Of a stretch of DNA of 46,606 nucleotides, positions 13,633 to 42,078 are shown piece after piece. The stretch is taken from contig JAEOTR010000033.1 of the NCBI GenBank assembly GCA_016839705.1, positions 1 to 46,606 on the forward strand. Direction: 5' to 3'. The stretch is from Promethearchaeota archaeon (GTDB lineage: Archaea; Asgardarchaeota; Lokiarchaeia; Sigyniarchaeales; SOKP01). How positions within the stretch are numbered: position 1 is the first letter of the stretch; the number at the start of each line of letters is the position of its first letter. The notes under the pieces are model-generated. The model was not told the origin of the DNA and did no database searches. It was given only the letters and a program-made list of their open reading frames with translations. The translations under genes and the position numbers were made by a program.

Positions 13633-14553
13633 TCATATACCAATTTGATTATTGATTTTTTTATTCATTTCAAGAATCACATCTTTAGCTGCCTTGCTAA
13701 AATCATATTGTGAGTAATTTTGATTCTTACTATAAGCATAAATAATTCCTCTCGAAGAATTTACTATGCCACCTAATCCGTTTTCATAAAAACCAGGTTT
13801 AATATCTTTTGCTTGGGCACCTTGTGCTCCGTATCCTGGAATTAAAAAGAAAGAATTTTTAACGATTTCTCTTATCATTTTAAGTTCATTCGGGTAAGTG
13901 GCACCAACTACAACCCCTAAATTAGTAAAATTCGAGAATTTTTGGAGATCAGATGCCCATTCTTTTACCAATTCAGCCATTAGGATATAATTTCTTTTTA
14001 AGATATGATTTGTAACTTTATACTCAGAAATCTCTTCAGAAATATCTGGGATCTTAGAACTGAACAAATTTTGAAAATCAGAACTGCTTGGATTTGATGT
14101 TTTAACCAGGACAAAGACTCCTTTTTCCTTATAATTCAGGAATGGCTTAATACCATCAATTCCGAGATAAGCATTTACTGTACAAGCATCTGAGCCATAG
14201 TTTTTAAACATTGAATGCGCATATGCTTCAGATGTCGATCCAATATCATTTCTCTTTGCATCTAAAATTACTAAAAGATCTTTTTTGTGAGCATACTTTA
14301 TTGTTTCTGTTAAAGCATTTAGAGCCTCATATTTCTCATAAAATGCGATTTGAGGCTTAATAACAGGAATCAAATCGAAAACTTCTTCAATAAGAGTTTT
14401 GTTAAATTCCAAAATTATTCTATCAGGGTGATCTAATTCTTCAATAAGATACTGGGGAATTTCTCCCTCTCTATCCATTCTAGGGTCTAAACCCATGGAT
14501 ATAACGCTTTGTTTTTCTTTTATTAATTGAATTAGTCGTTCAATAAAATTCAT
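13633..14553 (-). CDS. pyrF: Orotidine-5'-phosphate decarboxylase (type 2)
   Basis: Motifs GLDP, IKPQIAFYE, LDAKRNDIGST, VKTSNP, VVGAT, LIPGYGAQG, NSSRGII. Confidence 0.96.
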   Translation of the reverse strand: MNFIERLIQLIKEKQSVISMGLDPRMDREGEIPQYLIEELDHPDRIILEFNKTLIEEVFDLIPVIKPQIAFYEKYEALNALTETIKYAHKKDLLVILDAKRNDIGSTSEAYAHSMFKNYGSDACTVNAYLGIDGIKPFLNYKEKGVFVLVKTSNPSSSDFQNLFSSKIPDISEEISEYKVTNHILKRNYILMAELVKEWASDLQKFSNFTNLGVVVGATYPNELKMIREIVKNSFFLIPGYGAQGAQAKDIKPGFYENGLGGIVNSSRGIIYAYSKNQNYSQYDFSKAAKDVILEMNKKINNQIGI

Positions 14554-16133: not shown

Positions 16134-16781
16134 TTGTCTCAAGAACAGGTTTTTAAAACTATCATTGATTCTATCATTAATTTAGATGAAGAAAAAGCAA
16201 TAGAATTGGCCAGCAAAGCCATAAAAGAAAATTTGAATTTAGTTGATGTTATAGAAAAAGGGTATGCTGCAGGCATTCGAAGAGTGGGTGAACTATGGGA
16301 AGAGGGTGAATTTTTTCTGCCAGAATTAATGAGAGGGGCGCAAATTATGCAAAACTGTTTAGATTTAATTATTCCTCATCTTAAGAAAGGAGCAGAAGAA
16401 GTTTCAAAAGGTAAAGTAGTATTAGCTACAATAGAGGGAGACATTCATTCCATTGGAAAAACGATTGTTGGAACGATGTTGAGAGCGTATGGTTATGAAG
16501 TTTACGACTTAGGTGCCGATGTTCCAGCCGAGAAAATTGTTGATACCGCAATTGAAAAAAGTGCGAATATTATAGGAGTTTCAGCTTTATTAACGACTAC
16601 TATGTTTGGGCAAAAAAAAATAATTGATATCTTAAAGGAAAGGAATTTATTGGATAGGTTTAAAGTTATCTTAGGGGGAGCTCCCGTCACTAACGCATGG
16701 GTTGCTGAATGTAATGCTGATGGATTTGCCGAAAATGCTATAGATGCTGTAAAATTAGTTAGATCTTTATTAGAAAAATAA
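16134..16781 (+). CDS. Methyltransferase corrinoid (B12-binding) protein, MttC/MtbC family
   Basis: Cap domain VGELW..GEFFLPEL, B12 motif GDIHSIGK, SALLTTTM, GGAPV. TTG start after AGGAGAG. Confidence 0.95.
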   Translation: MSQEQVFKTIIDSIINLDEEKAIELASKAIKENLNLVDVIEKGYAAGIRRVGELWEEGEFFLPELMRGAQIMQNCLDLIIPHLKKGAEEVSKGKVVLATIEGDIHSIGKTIVGTMLRAYGYEVYDLGADVPAEKIVDTAIEKSANIIGVSALLTTTMFGQKKIIDILKERNLLDRFKVILGGAPVTNAWVAECNADGFAENAIDAVKLVRSLLEK

Positions 16782-16808
16782 TAAATTAATTATTGAGGTT
16801 TAAAATAT

Positions 16809-17687
16809 TTGAAATTTCAAGATTGGTTGAGGGATGATTCTAAAATTGTTTTATTCGATGGAGCAATGGGAACAGAATTAATTAAAAGAGGATTAGAACC
16901 CGGAAAGGTTCCAGATTTATTAAACATTGAAAATCCCGAAACCATAATCGAGATTCATAAATCCTATTATGATGCTGGTTCAGATATGTGCCAAACAAAC
17001 ACATTTGGTTCAACCCCATTAAATTTAAGACGATACAACCTTGAAGAGAGGATTGAAGACATAATAGGATGTGCTTTAGATAACATTCAAAAAGCTAATT
17101 CCTCTGGACGTTTAGTTGTTGGTGATATTGGACCAACTGGTGAATTTCGTCCTCCAGTAGGAGATGCTTCCAGTGAAGATTGGCATTCAAGTTTCAAAAT
17201 GCAGGCAAAATTATTGGAAAACGGAGTTAACCTCTACCATGTTGAAACTATTTCTGATCTTGAAGAAATCTTGACAGCAATCCGGGCAATTAAAGAAGTC
17301 TCAAGTAAACCAATTATTGCTTCCCTCACATATAAGAAGACAAAAAGAGGGTATTTCACAATCATGGGAGACTCATTAGAAAAATGTATTAGATCATTAG
17401 AAAGTGAAAATGTAGATGTAATTGGGGCAAATTGTACTATTGGATCAGGAGATATGCTAGATTTAGTTAAACAAGCTATTGATGTGACAAATGTCCCGAT
17501 TTCTGCAAAGCCTAATGCTGGACAACCTAGAGTAGAAGGTTTAAAGACTTTTTATGATCAACCAATTAAAGATTTTGTGAAGGATATCCAAGAAATGATA
17601 AATTTAGGAGTTAAAATAGTTGGTGGCTGCTGTGGTACATCCCCAATAACTATTAATGAAATTAGAAAAATAATAGATAAGATTTAG
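16809..17687 (+). CDS. Homocysteine S-methyltransferase domain protein (stand-alone MetH N-terminal module)
   Basis: Motifs DGAMGT, TNTFG, GDIGPTG, GANC, KPNAGQP and the Zn-binding GGCCGT. Confidence 0.94.
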   Translation: MKFQDWLRDDSKIVLFDGAMGTELIKRGLEPGKVPDLLNIENPETIIEIHKSYYDAGSDMCQTNTFGSTPLNLRRYNLEERIEDIIGCALDNIQKANSSGRLVVGDIGPTGEFRPPVGDASSEDWHSSFKMQAKLLENGVNLYHVETISDLEEILTAIRAIKEVSSKPIIASLTYKKTKRGYFTIMGDSLEKCIRSLESENVDVIGANCTIGSGDMLDLVKQAIDVTNVPISAKPNAGQPRVEGLKTFYDQPIKDFVKDIQEMINLGVKIVGGCCGTSPITINEIRKIIDKI

Positions 17688-17713
17688 ATTAGAAGGAAGG
17701 GTTTGAAATTTTT

Positions 17714-19138
17714 ATGGCGATATTAAGACCTAGGATTAACGTATTGGATGAAGAACACAAAGAACAAATATTAGAGGAAGCAAAAATTATATTAGAGACC
17801 CAAGGTATTTTCATTGAAAATCAAGAAGCGGTTGAATTATTTGATCAAAAAGGTTTAAATCATGAAGGTTTGCGGTATTTTTTTCCCCCAGATTTGATCA
17901 ATAAGTGCTTAGCTTCAGTCCCTTATGAAATCACTCTTTTCGATAGAGAGGGAAATGAATGTATTACATTAAAAGACAATGACGTTCATTTTGATCCTGG
18001 TTCCGCAGCCATTTTTATTCTTGATGAAAATACCAGAGAAATAAGAGAGGGCTTGTCAAAAGATTTTATCCGGTTCTCCAAAATCGTTGAACAATTAAAA
18101 TTTATTGAAGCACAAAGTACAGCTCTAATTTATCAAGATGTACCGAAAGAAGCTCAAGATTGGCATCGCCTATATTTAGCACTATCTAATTGTTATAAAC
18201 CGATAGTTACAGGAACATTTCGTAAAGAGAGTTTTTCTATTATGAAAGAAATTTTGCTAGCATGTAGAACATCAGAAGAGGATTTAGCTCGAAAACCACT
18301 GGCAATATTTGATGCTTGTCCTAGCCCTCCATTAAAATGGTCTGATCTTACAACACAATCACTTATTGATGCTGCAAAATCCATGATACCATCTGAATTT
18401 GTATCTATGCCATTAGCAGGGGCGAGTGCTCCAATTACTTTAATTGGCTCAATTACCCAACACTGTGCCGAGTGTCTTGCGGGAATTGTTATTGCTCAAT
18501 TAGCAAAAGAGGGTGCTCCATTAATTTGGGGAGGCTCTCCTGCGGTGTTTGATATGAAACATGGGACAACTCCAATGGGTGCAATTGAAACAATGATGAT
18601 TAACTTAGGAGATGTTGAGATGGGAAAATTTTTAAATCTCCCTACTCATGCCTATATGAGTTTAAGCGATTCTAAAATACCAGATGCTCAAGCGGGGTTT
18701 GAAGCAGGAATGGGAGCATTACTTGCAGGACTTGCGGGAGTTAATATGGTTTCTGGACCAGGGATGCTTGATTTTGAGTCTACTCAAAGTGTTGAAAAAC
18801 TAATAATTGATAATGAAATAGTAGGAATGGTAAAAAGATTAATTCGCGGTATTGAAGATTTTGGTACTCCTTTTGCTTCAGAAATATTGAAAGATTATGA
18901 AGATAAAGAAGAATTATTATCCCATCCATCAACTCTTAAATATTTTAGAAAGGAATTATTTCTTCCTAGTCAAATTATAGATAGAATGACAAGAGATTCA
19001 TGGAAGGAAAATGGTTCTAAATCAACAAGAAAAAGAGCATTAGATGTTGCTGAAAAGTTGTTACAAAAGCCTTCAATTAAACCTATTGATGGAAGCTTAG
19101 CGACAGAATTGGATAAGATTGCTGAAACGGCATTATAA
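17714..19138 (+). CDS. Trimethylamine methyltransferase (MttB) superfamily protein, non-pyrrolysine
   Basis: Motifs SPPLKW, MPLAGASAPITL.G, FDMKHG, SDSKIPDAQAGFE, GMLD, LIIDNEI. No in-frame TAG; TTA (Leu, 18662-18664) sits at the Pyl-equivalent position before SDSK. Confidence 0.93.
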   Translation: MAILRPRINVLDEEHKEQILEEAKIILETQGIFIENQEAVELFDQKGLNHEGLRYFFPPDLINKCLASVPYEITLFDREGNECITLKDNDVHFDPGSAAIFILDENTREIREGLSKDFIRFSKIVEQLKFIEAQSTALIYQDVPKEAQDWHRLYLALSNCYKPIVTGTFRKESFSIMKEILLACRTSEEDLARKPLAIFDACPSPPLKWSDLTTQSLIDAAKSMIPSEFVSMPLAGASAPITLIGSITQHCAECLAGIVIAQLAKEGAPLIWGGSPAVFDMKHGTTPMGAIETMMINLGDVEMGKFLNLPTHAYMSLSDSKIPDAQAGFEAGMGALLAGLAGVNMVSGPGMLDFESTQSVEKLIIDNEIVGMVKRLIRGIEDFGTPFASEILKDYEDKEELLSHPSTLKYFRKELFLPSQIIDRMTRDSWKENGSKSTRKRALDVAEKLLQKPSIKPIDGSLATELDKIAETAL

Positions 19139-20042: not shown

Positions 20043-20315
20043 ATTCCAAAACTAATAGAGAATAAGGAAAAAAACTTCTCATTGTTTTTAAATAAGGGAA
20101 GGTGTGGAGGTTGCAGAGCTTGTATTGCAGTATGTCCTACAGGTATTTTGGAACTGAGTGACGAGTTGAATTATCGAATTGCATATATTCCAAAAGTTAA
20201 GGAAGGTAAAGAAAAATATTGTACTGCATGTCGTAGGTGCGAGTTCGCCTGTCCTGATTGGTGTATTTATGTATTAGATGAAGAAAAAGCGTCCAGTGAA
20301 AGGGCTAAAACTTAA
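20043..20315 (+). CDS. 2x[4Fe-4S] ferredoxin, delta subunit of 2-oxoacid:ferredoxin oxidoreductase (start at ATT 20043 or TTG 20082)
   Basis: CGGCRACIAVCP and CTACRRCEFACPD; first gene of the alpha/beta/gamma operon. Confidence 0.88.
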   Translation: MPKLIENKEKNFSLFLNKGRCGGCRACIAVCPTGILELSDELNYRIAYIPKVKEGKEKYCTACRRCEFACPDWCIYVLDEEKASSERAKT

Positions 20316-20328
20316 TGAGGTGTATTAA

Positions 20329-21498
20329 TTGGGAAATAATGATAAGAGATATTTACCAGAAGGAAAACAGGTAATGATGGGAAATATTGCAATGTCAGAA
20401 GGTGCTCTAGCAGCAGGTCTAAATTTCTTTGGAGGGTATCCGATTACTCCGAGTACTGAGGTTATTGAACATTTAGCTAGGAGGATGCCAGAAGTTGGAG
20501 GTGTATGTATGCAAATGGAAGATGAATTAGCATCAATAAACGCCGTAATGGGTGCTTCCTTAGTGGGTGCTAAAGCAATGACTGCAACGTCTGGTCCAGG
20601 ATTTTCATTGATGGTGGAAACTATAAGTATGGCTGCTTGTTTAGAAATACCATTTGTTTTTTGTGATGTTCAGAGAAATGGACCAGGTACTGGATTTGTT
20701 ACTGAACCTCATCATAATGATTTAGGTCTGATGCGCTTTGCGGGTAATGGAGAATTTGGAGTAATAGCATTAGCTCCAATGAATTGTCAAGAGCTATTCG
20801 ACCTAACAATTACCGCATTTAATTTTGCTGAGATTTATCGTTGTCCCGTTTTCATTGTCTCTGATGCCTATTTAGGACATCTTCATGAACCATTATTTAT
20901 ACCATCAAAAGAAGAAATTATTGAAAAAGTAATTCCTCGTGAATTACCTTCTGATCTGACACATAAATTTACTTATTTTGATAATAAAACAAATTCATAC
21001 GTTATCCCAAAACCACCAATAATGGGCACTGATTATGTACCTTTAATGTTTCTCCATCAAGCACATAACTCAGCAGGTATGTCTTCCCAAAGAGAGGCAC
21101 TTCCATTTACGAAGATGCTAACTGATAAACTTAAAACCAATATAGATAAGATATCTTTAACTGAAGAATATAAAATGGATGATGCTGAAATAATAATAAT
21201 TTCTTATGGTTTACCCGTCAGAACAAGTTATCGTGCTGTAGACATAGCACGTAAAGAAGGAATTAAAGTTGGGATTTTTAGATTGATAACATTGTGGCCA
21301 TTTCCGGATGAGAAAGTAAAGGATGTAGTGAAAGAAGCAAAAGCTATAATTGTACCTGAATTGAATTATACTGGTATTGTCGCAGAACAAGTTGAACGAG
21401 TAACAAAATTAGAAATACCTATAATAAAAATTCCTAAAATATGCGATTTTCATCACCCAGATGATATTTTAAAAGTAATAAGGGAGGTGGCAAAATAA
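20329..21498 (+). CDS. 2-oxoacid:ferredoxin oxidoreductase alpha subunit (KorA-like)
   Basis: Motifs GYPITPSTE, QMEDELAS, TATSGPGFSLM, VQRNGPGTG, LWPFP. Confidence 0.95.
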   Translation: MGNNDKRYLPEGKQVMMGNIAMSEGALAAGLNFFGGYPITPSTEVIEHLARRMPEVGGVCMQMEDELASINAVMGASLVGAKAMTATSGPGFSLMVETISMAACLEIPFVFCDVQRNGPGTGFVTEPHHNDLGLMRFAGNGEFGVIALAPMNCQELFDLTITAFNFAEIYRCPVFIVSDAYLGHLHEPLFIPSKEEIIEKVIPRELPSDLTHKFTYFDNKTNSYVIPKPPIMGTDYVPLMFLHQAHNSAGMSSQREALPFTKMLTDKLKTNIDKISLTEEYKMDDAEIIIISYGLPVRTSYRAVDIARKEGIKVGIFRLITLWPFPDEKVKDVVKEAKAIIVPELNYTGIVAEQVERVTKLEIPIIKIPKICDFHHPDDILKVIREVAK

Positions 21499-22403
21499 TG
21501 TCGATGTATCCAAGTGAACAGCCAGAACATCCATATCTTTCTATTTCAATGCCAGGAAAATTTTTTAAGAGATATTTTTCTCTTTTTTGTGCTGGATGTG
21601 GTTATGGAATAATTGGGCATCTCTTCAATCGCGTATTTGAAGATGAAAAAGTAGATCCTAAATTGCATCCGGTGGTTATTGGGATTGGATGTTATGGGCA
21701 AATATTATTAACGTTACATCATGCGACACAAAGAATATTAACTTTGCATGGTAGAGCACCAGCTTTAGCAACAGGAATGAAAATGGCTAACCCCAAAATG
21801 AAACCCATTATCTTTACTGGAGATGGTGATTGTTTAGGAATAGGAGGAAACCATTTTATGCACATTTGCCGCAGAAATCTTGATTGCGTAATACTTATTT
21901 TTAATAATAGTATCTACGCAATGACAGGGGGGCAAGGAGCACCAACAACTTTATTTGGTGCGATGAGTTCGACTACACCATATAAAATGTTTGAGAATAG
22001 AACCGATGGGGTAAAACTTGCACTTACTGCTGGTGCTTCTTATGTTGCAAGAACAACAGTTGCTCACCCTAGAACTTTAATGAAATACTTTAGGAAGGGT
22101 TTAAAACACAAAGGTACTGCTGTTATAGAAATAATAACTCCCTGTATTACCTATTTCGGAAGAAAAAATCTTGATAGTTTAGGTGATGAAAGTTCAGGTA
22201 TAAAAGGACAGAAAATGGATAATACTGGCATCATGATTGATTGGATAAAAAGAAATAGCTTACGTATTAATCAAGCGAAATTCATGACTGAAGAAGAATT
22301 ACTAAATAAGTATATCATTGGGGAATTTAGATATAATCCTGACACACCAGAATATTCCGAAGAGTATGAGAAAATTAAGAAAATAGCAATGGGGGAGAAA
22401 TAA
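21498..22403 (+). CDS. 2-oxoacid:ferredoxin oxidoreductase beta subunit (TPP-binding)
   Basis: Motifs FCAGCG, GIGC, TLHGRA, GDGD...NNSIYAMTGGQ, TPC. TAATG overlap with the alpha subunit gene. Confidence 0.95.
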   Translation: MSMYPSEQPEHPYLSISMPGKFFKRYFSLFCAGCGYGIIGHLFNRVFEDEKVDPKLHPVVIGIGCYGQILLTLHHATQRILTLHGRAPALATGMKMANPKMKPIIFTGDGDCLGIGGNHFMHICRRNLDCVILIFNNSIYAMTGGQGAPTTLFGAMSSTTPYKMFENRTDGVKLALTAGASYVARTTVAHPRTLMKYFRKGLKHKGTAVIEIITPCITYFGRKNLDSLGDESSGIKGQKMDNTGIMIDWIKRNSLRINQAKFMTEEELLNKYIIGEFRYNPDTPEYSEEYEKIKKIAMGEK

Positions 22404-22406
22404 AGA

Positions 22407-23003
22407 TTGGCACGATATGAAATACGTATCGCAGGATTTGGCGGTCAGGGTGTGATTTCGTTGTCAAAAATGATCATTACCGCTGCTTCGCTTTATGAAA
22501 ATTTAGCAGCCACTCAAACCGAAGCTTATAGTGCTTCTGCTCGCGGTGGTGCCTGTTGGGCAGAAGTAGTAGTCGAATTAGATAAAGATGTTAAAATTAT
22601 TGATTATCCTCAAGCTTTACAACCATACGATTTTTTAATAGTACTTTCTGGAGAATCAGCTGCCCGTATTAGCCCTAACCAATTTAAAAGTGGTGAAAAT
22701 ACAGGATATTTAATCTGGGATCCATCAACCATCAAGGATTTTAAAATAGCAGATCAGATTCAAAAATCATTACGTATTCCTGTTCAAAAATTAGCTGTTG
22801 AGAAATTTGGGAATATTGTATTCGGTAATTCAATTCTTTTTGGGGCTTTTACTATACTTTCTGGAATAATTTCAGAAGAATCTGCTCTTGAGACTCTTAA
22901 AAAATTTGTACCTAGCTCTACGTTAGAAAAAAACATGGAAGCATTTGAGCTTGGTAAAAAAGAAGCGCAGGATTTTGTTAAAAAATTAAAGGAGGACAAT
23001 TAG
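22407..23003 (+). CDS. 2-oxoacid:ferredoxin oxidoreductase gamma subunit
   Basis: Motifs EIRIAGFGGQG, YSASARGG, N.EAFELG. Confidence 0.94.
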   Translation: MARYEIRIAGFGGQGVISLSKMIITAASLYENLAATQTEAYSASARGGACWAEVVVELDKDVKIIDYPQALQPYDFLIVLSGESAARISPNQFKSGENTGYLIWDPSTIKDFKIADQIQKSLRIPVQKLAVEKFGNIVFGNSILFGAFTILSGIISEESALETLKKFVPSSTLEKNMEAFELGKKEAQDFVKKLKEDN

Positions 23004-23007
23004 AATT

Positions 23008-24825
23008 ATGTATGTTAGTAAGATCAAAAAAGGTTGGCGAGAACTTGATTCTGAAATTATACAAACTGGTAAATGTGTATATTGTGGAGCATGTGGGGCA
23101 TTTTGTGCTAATATAAAATTTGACACTCAAAAAGAAATTCCAATAGAAGATGGTTCATGTAAAGATAGTAACACTTGTAGAGATGGATTTGGTTTATGCT
23201 ATAATTTATGCCCAAAAACAGGAATAGAACAAATTCCAATGTCATTACTAGATCAATGGGTATTCGGAAAAGAGCATAACAAGATTTTAGGGCATTATTT
23301 AGATATAGTCACCGTACAACTCACAGATAAAGCTAGAGAGAAAGTACCTATTGAAGCAGGTCCAATCACAACTTTATTATTTACAGCAATGGAAGCAGGT
23401 TTAATTGATTGTTCAATAATAACCGATAAGGATGAAAACTTCATCCCTTTTCCTATAATTGCTGAAAATCAAAAAGAAATTTTCAAAGGGGTAGGATATA
23501 AACCAAGTCAAAGTCCTACAATATCTCTTGTAGGGGATGCAATTAATAGAGAACATAATGATATTGCAGTAGTTGGGACACCATGTCAAATTCAATCATT
23601 ACGGAAAATACAAAATCACCCAATATTTGATTTTGAGGCATATGATCTTATTACACTAGCAATTGGGACATTTTGTTTTGGAACTTATTATAACCAACTT
23701 ATCGCTCAATGTTTTAATGAATACGGTATTAATACTGAAGATATAATAAAAGTTGGTGCGGATAAAAATGAATTTAAAATGAAAGTATATTCGAATTCGG
23801 GATTAAAAGAAATTCCACTAAATTACATTTATGAAAAATCAATTCGAAATGCTTGTTTTTCGTGTTCGGATTATACCGCCTCATTTGCAGATATTTCTGT
23901 AGGTAATATTGGGAGTGAAGAGGGTTGGAAAACTTTAATCATTAGAACAGAAAGGGGGAAGGTGATATACGATTTAGCTATTGAAAAAGGATTTCTTAAA
24001 GCTAAATCTCTTCCAAAAATCAAGGAAGACTTAGTTTTAGATATCACTCGTTGTAAAACCGATATAGTTAAAATTGAATCCGTAGTAGAGCATTCATCAG
24101 ATATTAAGAGTATCATTCTGAGGAACGATAGGATAGCACAAATGTATAAACCAGGAATGTTTGTATTTTTGTGGCTTCCTGATATAGATTTTTTACCAAT
24201 GTCGATTTCGAAAGTAGAAGGAAATCGTATTGAAATTACAGTTCAAAAAATTGGGGACGGAACTGCTAAACTATTTGACCTTACAGTAGGAGATTCTATT
24301 GGAATAAGGGGACCATTTGGAAACCCATGGAGTTATGGGGATGCCGCCAATATTCTTATTGTCGGAGGGGGAATGGGAATCGCCGCAATCACATCGCTAA
24401 TTGAGTCACTAAAGAACACGAGTAATAATATCACTGTTGCTATAGGGGCAAAAGATAAAACCTCGTTGATCTTTGCTGATAGGTTAATAGAACTCATTCC
24501 TAATACAATGTGTACTACTGATGATGGTTCTTTTGGTAAAAAATGTTATGTAACAGACAGTATTGAAGAAATCATATCCGCTAACAATATAGATCTTATT
24601 CTTACATGTGGTCCAGAGGTTATGATGAAAAAAGTACTAGACATAGCTGAATCAAAAAATATTAAAGTTCAAGCTTCTCTTGAGAGAAAAATGAAATGCG
24701 GAGTAGGATTGTGTGGTTCTTGCTGCCTTGGAGAAAATAATGATATTTCTGTCTGTAAGGATGGTCCAATATTTAATTCAGAACAGCTGAAGAAATTTCC
24801 TCAGTTCGGAAGCTATTTCAAATAA
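23008..24825 (+). CDS. Fusion protein: F420 hydrogenase/dehydrogenase beta (FrhB/FdhB-like) domain + PyrK-like FAD/NAD/[2Fe-2S] electron-transfer domain
   Basis: Residues ~1-345: CVYCGACGAFC, VVGTPCQI, IGTFC, CFSCSDYTASFADISVG, IIRTERG. Residues ~350-605: IRGPFGN, VGGGMG, TDDGS, CGPEVMM, ERKMKCGVGLCGSC..VCKDGPIF. Confidence 0.9.
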   Translation: MYVSKIKKGWRELDSEIIQTGKCVYCGACGAFCANIKFDTQKEIPIEDGSCKDSNTCRDGFGLCYNLCPKTGIEQIPMSLLDQWVFGKEHNKILGHYLDIVTVQLTDKAREKVPIEAGPITTLLFTAMEAGLIDCSIITDKDENFIPFPIIAENQKEIFKGVGYKPSQSPTISLVGDAINREHNDIAVVGTPCQIQSLRKIQNHPIFDFEAYDLITLAIGTFCFGTYYNQLIAQCFNEYGINTEDIIKVGADKNEFKMKVYSNSGLKEIPLNYIYEKSIRNACFSCSDYTASFADISVGNIGSEEGWKTLIIRTERGKVIYDLAIEKGFLKAKSLPKIKEDLVLDITRCKTDIVKIESVVEHSSDIKSIILRNDRIAQMYKPGMFVFLWLPDIDFLPMSISKVEGNRIEITVQKIGDGTAKLFDLTVGDSIGIRGPFGNPWSYGDAANILIVGGGMGIAAITSLIESLKNTSNNITVAIGAKDKTSLIFADRLIELIPNTMCTTDDGSFGKKCYVTDSIEEIISANNIDLILTCGPEVMMKKVLDIAESKNIKVQASLERKMKCGVGLCGSCCLGENNDISVCKDGPIFNSEQLKKFPQFGSYFK

Positions 24826-24871: not shown

Positions 24872-26341
24872 ATGTCAAAAAAATTGTCTGATCTTACTTT
24901 TGTCTCTGCAATAGAAGTAGCAAGAGCTATCCAGAAAGGTGAAGTATCCTCTCTAGAACTCACTAAACATATTCTAGATCGTATTGAAAGATACAATCCA
25001 ACTCTCAATGCAGTTGTCACAATTCTTGCGGATGATGCCCTTAACCGAGCCCGTGCTGCAGATGAGGCTCTTGCAAAAGGGGAATTATGGGGACCACTAC
25101 ATGGCGTCCCATGCTCAGTGAAAGATACATTCGAAACAACTAATGTTTTAACAACTGCTGGAATACCTGCTTTAGCTAAATATATTCCAAAAAGAAATGC
25201 AGTTGCTGTTGAAAGATTGCTTGGAGCAGGTGCAATAATCATTGGCCACACCAATGTACCTTTTATGGCTTCTGACCTTCAGAGTTATAATGAGATATTT
25301 GGCACAACAAATAATCCTTGGGATCATGAACGTACCCCGGGTGGGTCAACAGGGGGTGGAGCCGCGGCACTTGCTGCGGGATTAAGCTATTTATCAATAG
25401 GAAGTGATATCGGGGGATCAATTCGCACCCCCTCTAATTTTTGTGGAGTATATGGTCATAAGCCTAGTCTAAATGTCATTCCAGAGCGAGGTCATATTCC
25501 ACCTCTCCCGAATATACTCGTACCTCCTGCAAATCTGTCTGTGATTGGTCCACTTGCACGAAGTGCAGCCGATCTCAAACTAGCACTTAAAATTTTGGGG
25601 GGACCAGATCCCAATGATGCTATCGCATACAGTTGGACTCTGCCACCATCGCGAGGAACTCGCTTATCTGATTATCGGATTGGTTATATATTGGATGATC
25701 TGCTTTGTCCAGTTATTTCTGAGGTGAAAGAAGTATTGTTTCAAGCAGTTAATGCACTTCGTAAGAAGGGAGCAGAATTAGAGAAAGGTTGGCCACCTGG
25801 TGTCAATCCTTCAAGTCAATATGAAACTTATCGTTTCCTATTGGAATCAACATATGCCTATCAGCTACAAGATGATTATATAGAGGAGGTTCGTGAATTC
25901 GCAACAAAAAAGGACGGAAGTGATGAAGCAAAAGCCGCCTGGGCTTGGACAGCCCCCCACAAACATTTTCAAATGGCTAACGTAGCACGAATGACAGCAA
26001 GAGCGGTATGGCAAGATTATTTTCTTACCCACGATGCATTTCTCCTCCCTACAACATTTATTCCAGCATTTCCTCATGACCATAGTGAGCCTATGATAAA
26101 ACGCCGTTTAGACACTCTTGAAGGTCCAAGACCCTACTTAGATATTTTATTCTGGATATCCTTTGCAACATTGACAGGTCTCCCAGCAACCACAGCGCCA
26201 ATAGGACTAACAAAAGATGGATTACCTGTAGGTATTCAAATTATAGGACCTTACTTAGAAGATGCCACCCCAATAGATCTTGCTGGTATTTTGACGGAGA
26301 TTATTGGGGGATTCCAACCACCCGAGGGTTACGAGGCGTAA
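24872..26341 (+). CDS. Amidase signature family enzyme
   Basis: HGVP.SVKD (catalytic Lys), PGGSTGG, GSDIGGSIR.P, GLPVGIQ. Confidence 0.95.
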   Translation: MSKKLSDLTFVSAIEVARAIQKGEVSSLELTKHILDRIERYNPTLNAVVTILADDALNRARAADEALAKGELWGPLHGVPCSVKDTFETTNVLTTAGIPALAKYIPKRNAVAVERLLGAGAIIIGHTNVPFMASDLQSYNEIFGTTNNPWDHERTPGGSTGGGAAALAAGLSYLSIGSDIGGSIRTPSNFCGVYGHKPSLNVIPERGHIPPLPNILVPPANLSVIGPLARSAADLKLALKILGGPDPNDAIAYSWTLPPSRGTRLSDYRIGYILDDLLCPVISEVKEVLFQAVNALRKKGAELEKGWPPGVNPSSQYETYRFLLESTYAYQLQDDYIEEVREFATKKDGSDEAKAAWAWTAPHKHFQMANVARMTARAVWQDYFLTHDAFLLPTTFIPAFPHDHSEPMIKRRLDTLEGPRPYLDILFWISFATLTGLPATTAPIGLTKDGLPVGIQIIGPYLEDATPIDLAGILTEIIGGFQPPEGYEA

Positions 26342-41439: not shown

Positions 41440-42078
41440 TCATTTTGATTTACGACGAGTTAATAATTTAAATGCTATATCTGTACCCATTCCTTGATTG
41501 TACGCTAATTCAATCCAAAGCATGGCAAGAGGTTCTGTAAGTCTAGCATTTTTGAGAGGACCTACATCTATAGCATCAAAACCAAGATCAATCGCTAATT
41601 GTTTTACCATTGATTTTGCTTCTAAATCGTCCCCACAAATGAATGTTGATGCTTTTTGTGTCCCAAACTCCAATTTATTTAGATTTTCAGAACCAATAGT
41701 ATGAAAAGCTTTAACTACTTTTGCACCCTCGACCCAAGTAGCGATCTCTTCTGCAGCAGATGTCGTGTGCCCAACTAATAAACCTCCTAAATGAGGTGCT
41801 ACAGCATTGGTACAATCTATAAGTATTTTTCCTCCCAGATCACCCGCAGCTTCGATAGATTCTTTTGCTGACGACCATGGAACTGCAAGAACCACAACCT
41901 CACCAAATTGAGCTGCATCAGCATATGTTCCTCCTGATACATTTGGTCCAAGTGAGTTGGCTAATTTTAGTACGTTTACGGGGTCACGAGACCCAAACAT
42001 TATTAGATGATTCTTAGCAACCCATAACCTTCCTAAAGCTTGTCCCATATTCCCCGTCCCGATTATTCCAATTTTCAT
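41440..42078 (-). CDS. NADPH-dependent F420 reductase family oxidoreductase
   Basis: Motifs IIGTGNMG, GSRDP, LAVPW, IDCTN, SAAE, VVKAF, ICGDD, DVGPL..AR..E. Confidence 0.88.
   Translation of the reverse strand: MKIGIIGTGNMGQALGRLWVAKNHLIMFGSRDPVNVLKLANSLGPNVSGGTYADAAQFGEVVVLAVPWSSAKESIEAAGDLGGKILIDCTNAVAPHLGGLLVGHTTSAAEEIATWVEGAKVVKAFHTIGSENLNKLEFGTQKASTFICGDDLEAKSMVKQLAIDLGFDAIDVGPLKNARLTEPLAMLWIELAYNQGMGTDIAFKLLTRRKSK

Follow-up and report, generated by a model that had tools for sequence, protein, structure and literature searches.

Enzymes that normally reduce ferredoxin have long been assumed to pass their electrons only to the free protein. The NADH-dependent phenylglyoxylate dehydrogenase of Azoarcus, PadEFGHI, is of the 2-oxoacid:ferredoxin oxidoreductase (OFOR) type and carries an extra flavoprotein subunit, with which it reduces NAD+ and not free ferredoxin. 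FrhB and PyrK-type modules are normally alternatives, as in group 3a versus group 3b hydrogenases or for Fsr, a sulfite reductase dependent on F420, versus AsrB, and the presence of both in one polypeptide is therefore unusual. In 2024 bolt-on reductases of coenzyme F420 (F420) were described for the carbon monoxide dehydrogenase (CODH) and the formylmethanofuran dehydrogenase (Fwd) of ethane-oxidising archaea: the zeta subunit of the CODH/acetyl-CoA decarbonylase-synthase (ACDS) complex (8RIU chain B) and FwdI (8RJA chain E) of Candidatus (Ca.) Ethanoperedens thermophilum dock to their host enzymes through a ferredoxin domain, and F420 reduction by the complexes, once purified, is about eight times faster than that of ferredoxin (Lemaire, Wegener & Wagner 2024, PMC11493965). 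In the methanotrophic archaea of group ANME-1 the FrhB6 paralogue adjoins pyruvate:ferredoxin oxidoreductase genes, and dedicated F420 reduction from 2-oxoacid oxidation has been proposed (Chadwick et al. 2022, PMC9012536). The present study concerns a five-gene cassette on contig JAEOTR010000033.1 of a Promethearchaeota archaeon (assembly GCA_016839705.1; Lokiarchaeia), analysed over a stretch of 46,606 nucleotides that is called the window below. In this cassette four OFOR genes are followed by a gene encoding an FrhB module fused to a PyrK-type module, a fifth protein that is read here, with a probability of roughly 0.55, as a built-in output subunit wiring the OFOR to F420 and/or NAD(P).

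The genes for the delta, alpha, beta and gamma subunits of the OFOR occupy positions 20082-23003 and the 605-aa open reading frame of the fusion positions 23008-24825, all on the forward strand (Table 1). An interpretation made beforehand from the letters alone, the sequence-only reading, had described this gene order with the 605-aa frame 4 nt behind gamma, which is what was found; its locus was right as well, with the minor difference that the cassette start which it gave, 20043, lies 39 nt upstream of the first ATG, GTG or TTG of delta, at 20082. The ATG of the fusion gene at 23008 follows the gamma stop after a gap of 4 nt, and the layout of this junction suggests translational coupling. 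The same reading had seen one complete FrhB and one complete PyrK domain meeting near position 24060, in agreement with the spans of the Pfam and NCBIfam matches, and had not spelled out the 2x[4Fe-4S] ferredoxin domain at the N-terminus. Pfam placed FrhB_FdhB_N at residues 117-174 (33.7 bits, cut-off 22) and FrhB_FdhB_C at residues 185-335 (124.3 bits, cut-off 23.3), and in the C half NAD_binding_1 at 452-543 and DHODB_Fe-S_bind at 559-594, both above their gathering scores. The NCBIfam PyrK equivalog NF000796 matched residues 352-603 with 259.8 bits (cut-off 224). The NCBIfam FrhB models covered residues 92-355 with scores under their own cut-offs (182.8 versus 269 and 161.6 versus 331.5), and the fusion is therefore not an FrhB equivalog.

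In an alignment of 53 fused sequences, with identities as low as 42%, all 16 cysteine ligands of the Fe-S clusters were invariant. They comprise C23/26/29/33 and C51/57/64/68 for the two [4Fe-4S] clusters of the ferredoxin domain, C193/223/283/286 for the [4Fe-4S] cluster of the FrhB domain, whose counterparts in 8riu_B, 8rja_E, 9r51_B and 3zfs_C lie in the GTPCQ and C..C motifs, and C564/569/572/583 for the [2Fe-2S] cluster. The nucleotide motif GGGxGxA (GGGMGIA here) and the flavin motif PMSIS were conserved among the fused sequences, the latter being common to the fusion, to the PyrK of the same genome and to other archaeal PyrKs. The motifs ADISVGxIGSxxGW and RTxxG are shared with F420-reducing relatives; the ferredoxin-dependent relative HCAR gave a weak match (E = 1.6e-9). 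Since cofactor ligands and motifs are conserved, both halves are under selection as working redox modules. The AlphaFold2 (AF2) model of the fusion had a mean predicted local distance difference test score (pLDDT) of 92.1 and a predicted template modelling score (pTM) of 0.91, with the chain folded as a single compact body. In the fold comparison of this model no solved chain spanned both halves, the top query-normalised template modelling score (TM) being 0.51.

By sequence, residues 12-349 matched 8RIU chain B best (E = 1.7e-54, 32% identity), followed by 8RJA chain E, and the AF2 model superimposed on 8riu_B with a TM of 0.83 and a root-mean-square deviation of 2.3 Å over 352 columns. The N half was 33-35% identical to FrhB-like proteins of Archaeoglobus and of 'Methanomicrobia' metagenome-assembled genomes (MAGs), compared with at most 30% to the paralogues of its own genome, in which eight FrhB_C matches were found in total.

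Searches for homologues and for their taxonomic distribution, the latter proposed by the sequence-only reading, located the fusion in independent assemblies of Asgard archaea. More than 120 full-length homologues of 599-624 residues and 69-93% identity were recovered from 5.8 billion proteins; they stem from independent JGI, ENA, NCBI and Logan assemblies, and nearly all of the named ones are labelled 'dihydroorotate dehydrogenase electron transfer subunit' of Asgard archaea. When 301 genomes of the phylum were searched in six frames, the query was matched over nearly its whole length and without interruption in 36, none with an internal stop, and in pieces cut at contig ends in eight more. 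All of these genomes belong to the window's own GTDB family, outside of which the PyrK half alone was matched (E of about 1e-50). An assembly artefact is ruled out by the many full-length homologues of independent origin and by the absence of internal stops. A filter-free HMMER pass over 1.84 billion representatives added only two full-length clusters, P0121 (68% identity) and P0123 (42%), the latter from a second lineage that includes Ca. Sigynarchaeum springense; the remaining long matches were PyrK-PyrD fusions or PyrK modules with other extensions. The FrhB-PyrK architecture is real, rare and, on present data, confined to Asgard archaea. The shorter matches P0122, P0124, P0125, P0126 and P0140, not all of which were examined, look like fragments, P0125 being labelled partial and P0122 lying on a 3.5-kb contig. 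Separate FrhB and PyrK genes behind an OFOR were not seen, no dedicated search for shorter forms having been made. Of a different kind is P0156 (532 aa), which has a C-terminal PyrK-type module and a first part of about 240 residues matching no Pfam family; a similar PyrK-type fusion is encoded in a genome of the window's genus (G195:C4:1953-2804, open frame of 535 aa).

The order delta-alpha-beta-gamma-fusion was constant, as far as the contigs reach, in 18 loci of the same GTDB family, while the flanking genes varied. Orthologues of the alpha gene (at least 70% identity) were present in the fusion-bearing genomes and missing from those without the fusion, including genomes of 97-100% completeness; the sole exception was one genome that is 87% complete. 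Within the family the five genes are thus gained and lost together and behave as one cassette, which occurs in about two thirds of the family's genomes and in half of those of the genus. No clear pattern of complementarity was apparent among the genomes between the cassette and a paralogous Kor-type OFOR (alpha about 42% identical). In Ca. Sigynarchaeum springense the five-gene order is kept, with a fusion that is 42% identical and OFOR subunits that are 56-60% identical, in a genome of 56% GC as against 33% here. In phylogenetic trees all fused proteins fell on one side of a branch, with a support of 100/100 for the N half and a Shimodaira-Hasegawa-like approximate likelihood ratio (SH-aLRT) value of 86 for the C half, and the two halves showed the same internal split, a pattern in keeping with a fusion that arose once and was passed on with the OFOR, by inheritance or by transfer.

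The four genes ahead of the fusion encode a four-subunit OFOR of the Oor/Kor type in the order D-A-B-C. The delta subunit carries both canonical cluster motifs, C8xxC11xxC14xxxC18P and C47xxC50xxC53xxxC57P, for two [4Fe-4S] clusters. The alpha subunit scored 397 bits against PRK08659 (cut-off 411), and its nearest solved chains were 1yd7_A, the alpha subunit of a 2-keto acid:ferredoxin oxidoreductase of P. furiosus, and 8ys5_A, the alpha subunit of a 2-oxoglutarate synthase. For the beta subunit the top NCBIfam model was 2-oxoglutarate:ferredoxin oxidoreductase beta, with 191.7 bits against a cut-off of 364, and the nearest solved chain was 8ys5_C. As the equivalog cut-offs were missed, narrowly by alpha and clearly by beta, the substrate specificity is left unassigned. 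Six OFOR alpha-type genes are present in the genome, five of them besides that of the cassette.

Genes for F420 biosynthesis were found in the same genome, with NCBIfam scores of 452 bits for CofH (cut-off 374), 320 for CofD (257) and 268 for CofE (181), together with the F420-dependent methylene-tetrahydromethanopterin dehydrogenase Mtd (349 bits); judged by its gene content, the organism is able to make and use F420. The window itself encodes at 41440-42078 on the reverse strand a 211-aa protein of the F420_oxidored family (PF03807), with 93 bits against the NCBIfam npdG/Fno model (cut-off 149.8), which may be either an F420H2:NADP+ oxidoreductase that has diverged or some other enzyme of this fold that binds NADP.

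The reading of the fusion as an output subunit is favoured because the architecture and cofactor sites are intact, the operon is tight, the synteny is constant and the genes are co-inherited, because the N half is nearest to the docking-type F420 reductases 8RIU and 8RJA, F420 genes are present and the model of the whole chain is confident, and because free-standing FrhB-like genes adjoin OFOR genes elsewhere. One such case is the metagenome contig Ga0209986_10002750 (L085:3767-7032, forward strand), in which a free-standing FrhB-like gene of 371 aa stands 4 nt behind the genes for OFOR alpha (395 aa) and beta (311 aa); its product grouped with support of 100/100 with P0179 of a 'Methanomicrobia' MAG, and the locus is probably of the 'FrhB6-PFOR' type of ANME-1. 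As a side observation, on another metagenome contig, Ga0256407_10003756 (L087:4403-8576, forward strand), a glutamate synthase in pieces (GATase, GXGXG and Glu_synthase) is accompanied by a 365-aa FrhB-like protein with a permuted domain order, FrhB_C at residues 4-148, then Fer4, then FrhB_N at residues 284-349.

With respect to mechanism, we infer the attachment to the OFOR, the direction of electron flow, the substrate and the physiological exit port as follows. The five genes would encode one enzyme, an OFOR of the OorDABC/Kor type with 2-oxoglutarate as the most likely substrate and with the fifth subunit in the place of free ferredoxin. Electrons would pass from thiamine pyrophosphate (TPP) through the [4Fe-4S] cluster of beta and the two [4Fe-4S] clusters of delta to the two [4Fe-4S] clusters of the ferredoxin domain of the fusion, which would serve as docking bridge, and further through the [4Fe-4S] cluster of the FrhB domain to its FAD, from where a hydride could leave to F420. 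A second exit would lead from the FrhB FAD through the PyrK-type [2Fe-2S] cluster and the second FAD to NAD(P)+, with NAD+ a more likely acceptor than NADP+ by homology with PyrK and NfnA. This order of centres is modelled on the FMN/[2Fe-2S]/FAD succession of dihydroorotate dehydrogenase B and on Nfn. The net reaction would be 2-oxoacid + CoA + F420 or NAD(P)+ → acyl-CoA + CO2 + F420H2 or NAD(P)H. It would be strongly exergonic and would in practice run one way only, since a reversible reaction at about -500 mV is tied to carriers at -340/-320 mV, and F420H2 would equilibrate with NAD(P)H as a side effect. The one-way reduction of higher-potential carriers has been argued likewise for the ethanotroph enzymes (PMC11493965).

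The public name of the fusion implies another function, that of the PyrK electron-transfer subunit of dihydroorotate dehydrogenase B, in this case linked to F420. The sequence-only reading had predicted that automatic annotation would mislabel the protein in this way, as indeed it has, because the fusion exceeds the NCBIfam PyrK cut-off. The fusion does have the build of a PyrK, with a ferredoxin-NADP+ reductase (FNR)-like FAD/NAD module and a four-Cys [2Fe-2S] domain, and 6.5 kb upstream, on the opposite strand, there is a pyrF gene, whose presence we take as coincidence. What it lacks is the partnership with PyrD. The one pyrD of the genome is on another contig (C25) with a normal pyrK of 296 aa directly downstream, to which the C half of the fusion is just 40% identical; neither pyrD nor a gene for a hydrogenase large subunit adjoins the cassette, as had been noted beforehand. 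A consistent pairing with pyrD, which would have pointed to an F420-linked dihydroorotate dehydrogenase, was not borne out, since in the 22 loci inspected the fusion always stood behind OFOR genes and never next to pyrD. Moreover, the cassette is absent from complete genomes of the same genus that retain a PyrK, and all genomes of the family, whether they have the cassette or not, gave a PyrK-only match. With a separate pyrD-pyrK pair at hand and the fusion tied to OFOR genes, the pyrimidine function is rejected as highly improbable. A different possibility is that of a soluble enzyme, co-expressed with the OFOR and not attached to it, which would reoxidise free ferredoxin with F420 and/or NAD(P), work as an F420H2:NAD(P)+ transhydrogenase, or do both. 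The chain holds every centre needed to act alone, and proteins of the FpoF/FqoF type, which have the same layout of ferredoxin and FrhB domains, match the fusion; for soluble FpoF, the oxidation of ferredoxin with F420 has been reported. In addition, no canonical Fno above the cut-off was found, the 211-aa protein mentioned above falling short of it. Strict co-inheritance with one OFOR over a deep divergence nevertheless exceeds what general ferredoxin recycling would need, the genome has its five further OFOR alpha-type genes, and the nearest solved relatives are docked subunits and not free proteins, so that an unattached enzyme is considered unlikely. Of the functions suggested by the sequence-only reading, coupling to 2-oxoacid oxidation is thus the one favoured by synteny, co-inheritance and likeness to 8RIU and 8RJA, and a free transhydrogenase would be at best a side activity.

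Some points weigh against the output-subunit reading itself. The cassette is missing from about a third of the family's genomes and from half of those of the genus and is accordingly accessory and not central to metabolism, and a simple linear wire gives no reason for keeping a port for F420 as well as one for NAD(P). Two hydride ports beside a low-potential wire, left unexplained in this manner, would make sense in an Nfn-like bifurcation or confurcation, in which the FAD of the FrhB domain would take the part of the bifurcating flavin of NfnB, with F420H2 replacing NADPH: one electron would reach NAD+ by way of the [2Fe-2S] cluster and the second FAD, and the other would travel along the three [4Fe-4S] clusters, to end on ferredoxin or to enter the OFOR itself, in which case F420H2 could even drive the reductive carboxylation of an acyl-CoA. 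In its centres the fusion parallels NfnAB, with a PyrK-like FAD/[2Fe-2S] arm and a flavin with a low-potential [4Fe-4S] chain (Nfn layout in PMC8097209), and the C half scored 120 bits against NfnA (4ylf_A) as compared with 104 bits against PyrK (5ksw_B). Its [2Fe-2S] motif, MKCGVGLCGSC, is by contrast all-Cys as in PyrK (MACGIGACYAC) and not of the Asp(Cys)3 kind of NfnA (MVDGTGMCGAC), a site with an unusually high potential of +80 mV (PMC8097209). No NfnB/GltD-like partner adjoins the fusion. Moreover, no FrhB-family flavin is known to bifurcate, and bifurcation is held to be rather improbable. The output-subunit reading is the one retained below.

Table 1. Features of the cassette and of its surroundings, with window positions.
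Feature	Position	Strand	Basis or remarks
pyrF (orotidine 5'-monophosphate decarboxylase)	13633-14553	-	6.5 kb upstream of the cassette
OFOR delta, OorD-like, 77 aa	20082..20315	+	Pfam Fer4 dicluster families; best NCBIfam match OorD
OFOR alpha, 389 aa	20329..21498	+	Pfam POR_N and PFOR_II
OFOR beta, 301 aa, TPP-binding	21498..22403	+	Pfam TPP_enzyme_C
OFOR gamma, 198 aa	22407..23003	+	Pfam POR; NCBIfam PRK08537 / OorC
Gamma-fusion junction	22991..23007	+	GGAGG (22991-22995) within the 3' end of gamma, TAG stop ending at 23003, 4-nt spacer
FrhB-PyrK fusion gene (P0001), 605 aa	23008..24825	+	Pfam, NCBIfam
N-terminal ferredoxin domain, residues ~20-75, 2x[4Fe-4S]	23065..23232	+	Eight invariant Cys; aligns with 8riu_B residues 1-83
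FrhB-type F420-reductase domain, residues ~92-345, [4Fe-4S] + FAD (predicted)	23281..24042	+	Pfam FrhB_FdhB_N, FrhB_FdhB_C
PyrK/NfnA-type module, residues ~352-605, FAD + NAD(P) site + [2Fe-2S] (predicted)	24061..24822	+	NCBIfam PyrK

Directly upstream of the cassette, at 16134-19138 on the forward strand, the window encodes a corrinoid (B12-binding) protein, a homocysteine S-methyltransferase-family protein and an MttB-family methyltransferase. Genes of the latter two kinds stood upstream of the cassette in three of five loci of the same genus and not in other genera. Downstream, an amidase gene at 24872-26341 (forward strand; PRK06170, 533 bits, above the cut-off) begins 46 nt past the fusion gene; in none of the 18 related loci of the family was an amidase seen in this place.

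Further redox proteins of note are encoded elsewhere in the genome. An 823-aa open reading frame on contig C18 (L053:4369-6837, reverse strand) holds a GltD/NfnB-like module inside a split FrhB, with FrhB_FdhB_N at residues 75-145, Fer4_20 and Pyr_redox_2 at 190-604 and FrhB_FdhB_C at 661-740; its neighbours encode an Oxidored_q6-like protein of 411 aa and an HdrA-like protein of 690 aa. Judged by its domains, it is another unusual combination of F420 and NAD(P) modules. On contig C75 (L051:3552-6215, reverse strand) an 888-aa protein with Fer2_4, NuoG-type Fe-S domains and a partial molybdopterin domain ends in a [2Fe-2S] domain of the dihydroorotate dehydrogenase B (DHODB) type (residues 810-850), and its gene is flanked by those of a GltD-like protein of 473 aa and a NuoF-like protein of 577 aa. 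Contig C32 (L049:3409-15636, forward strand) carries a cluster of the Flx-Hdr type, which comprises an HdrB-like protein, a 374-aa protein with ferredoxin and FrhB domains, HdrA pieces, a fusion of MvhD with a helix-turn-helix (HTH) domain, a 1009-aa double HdrA, MvhD, two Fe-S proteins and a FlxA-like protein of 279 aa with the PyrK fold.

Reductases of F420 that bolt on to a host enzyme were known before, as were OFORs with a subunit of their own for NAD reduction and fusions of FrhB, of which Fsr is one. What appears to be new is the combination of FrhB and PyrK in one chain attached, as we propose, to an OFOR: the literature search found no paper and no characterised enzyme of this kind, and neither did the comparison with solved structures, as the sequence-only reading had supposed in knowing of no characterised enzyme with this architecture. 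The cassette would carry the bolt-on principle to the 2-oxoacid oxidoreductases, which are central in amino-acid fermentation, and to the Asgard archaea, and it would add a second output module, for NAD(P), within the same chain. If so, models of redox balance and energy yield for organisms of the Lokiarchaeia type would change, with electrons entering at -340/-320 mV instead of about -500 mV. The results also set right a database name, 'dihydroorotate dehydrogenase electron transfer subunit', that is systematically misapplied to well over a hundred entries. Should the flavin bifurcate after all, it would be the first of the FrhB family to do so, in an F420-dependent counterpart of Nfn tethered to an OFOR, and would provide a direct drive for acyl-CoA reductive carboxylation, or a means of balancing three redox pools, in the lineage of archaea that is nearest to the eukaryotes.

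In comparison with the known systems, the fusion resembles the CODH zeta subunit and FwdI most in its N half. Like these, it has an N-terminal 2x[4Fe-4S] ferredoxin domain followed by an FrhB-type domain with [4Fe-4S] and FAD, and its gene shares an operon with those of an enzyme whose usual electron acceptor is ferredoxin. The host enzyme is a different one, a 2-oxoacid oxidoreductase in place of CODH or Fwd, and so is the organism, an Asgard archaeon and not an alkane oxidiser as is Ca. Ethanoperedens; in addition, the C-terminal dimerisation tail of CODH zeta is replaced by a complete PyrK-type FAD/NAD(P)/[2Fe-2S] module of 255 residues. A free-standing FrhB-bearing gene directly behind OFOR genes is found in ANME-1 (FrhB6) and at L085, in both cases without a PyrK module and outside the clade of the fused proteins; these FrhB-like proteins are only 32% identical to the N half of the fusion, and the OFORs beside them are distant, with alpha subunits that are 28% identical.

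The C half has the fold of PyrK (1EP1-3, 5KSW), with a TM of 0.83-0.84 (5ksw_B 0.84), and shares with it the all-Cys [2Fe-2S] motif CX4CX2CX10C as well as GGGxGxA and PMSIS. It differs from PyrK in being joined to an FrhB module, in the absence of the C-terminal tail of the archaeal PyrKs and in not being encoded with pyrD. By sequence, its best-scoring solved relatives were NfnA/NfnI (4YLF and 5JCA, 120 and 118 bits), and the fold gave a TM of 0.81 with the small subunit of NfnI (5jca_S) and of 0.76 with the gamma subunit of sulfhydrogenase (9nf0_C). The PyrK-type module has for its partner, as NfnA does, a second flavin with a [4Fe-4S] chain. Unlike NfnA, it has Cys as the first [2Fe-2S] ligand, where 4ylf_A and 5jca_S have Asp, and its partner is of the FrhB type instead of the GltD type and is fused instead of separate; GltD-like genes occur elsewhere in the genome, none of them in the cassette.

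PadEFGHI is likewise an enzyme of the OFOR type with an extra flavoprotein subunit, and the family names of Pad were seen among the NCBIfam matches. Its extra subunit belongs to another family, with no FrhB module and no F420. With Fsr (7NP8, 7NPA) the fusion has in common that a single chain joins an N-terminal ferredoxin and FrhB part to a second redox module, which in Fsr is an electron-consuming siroheme sulfite reductase and in the fusion would be a second hydride-exchanging flavoprotein.

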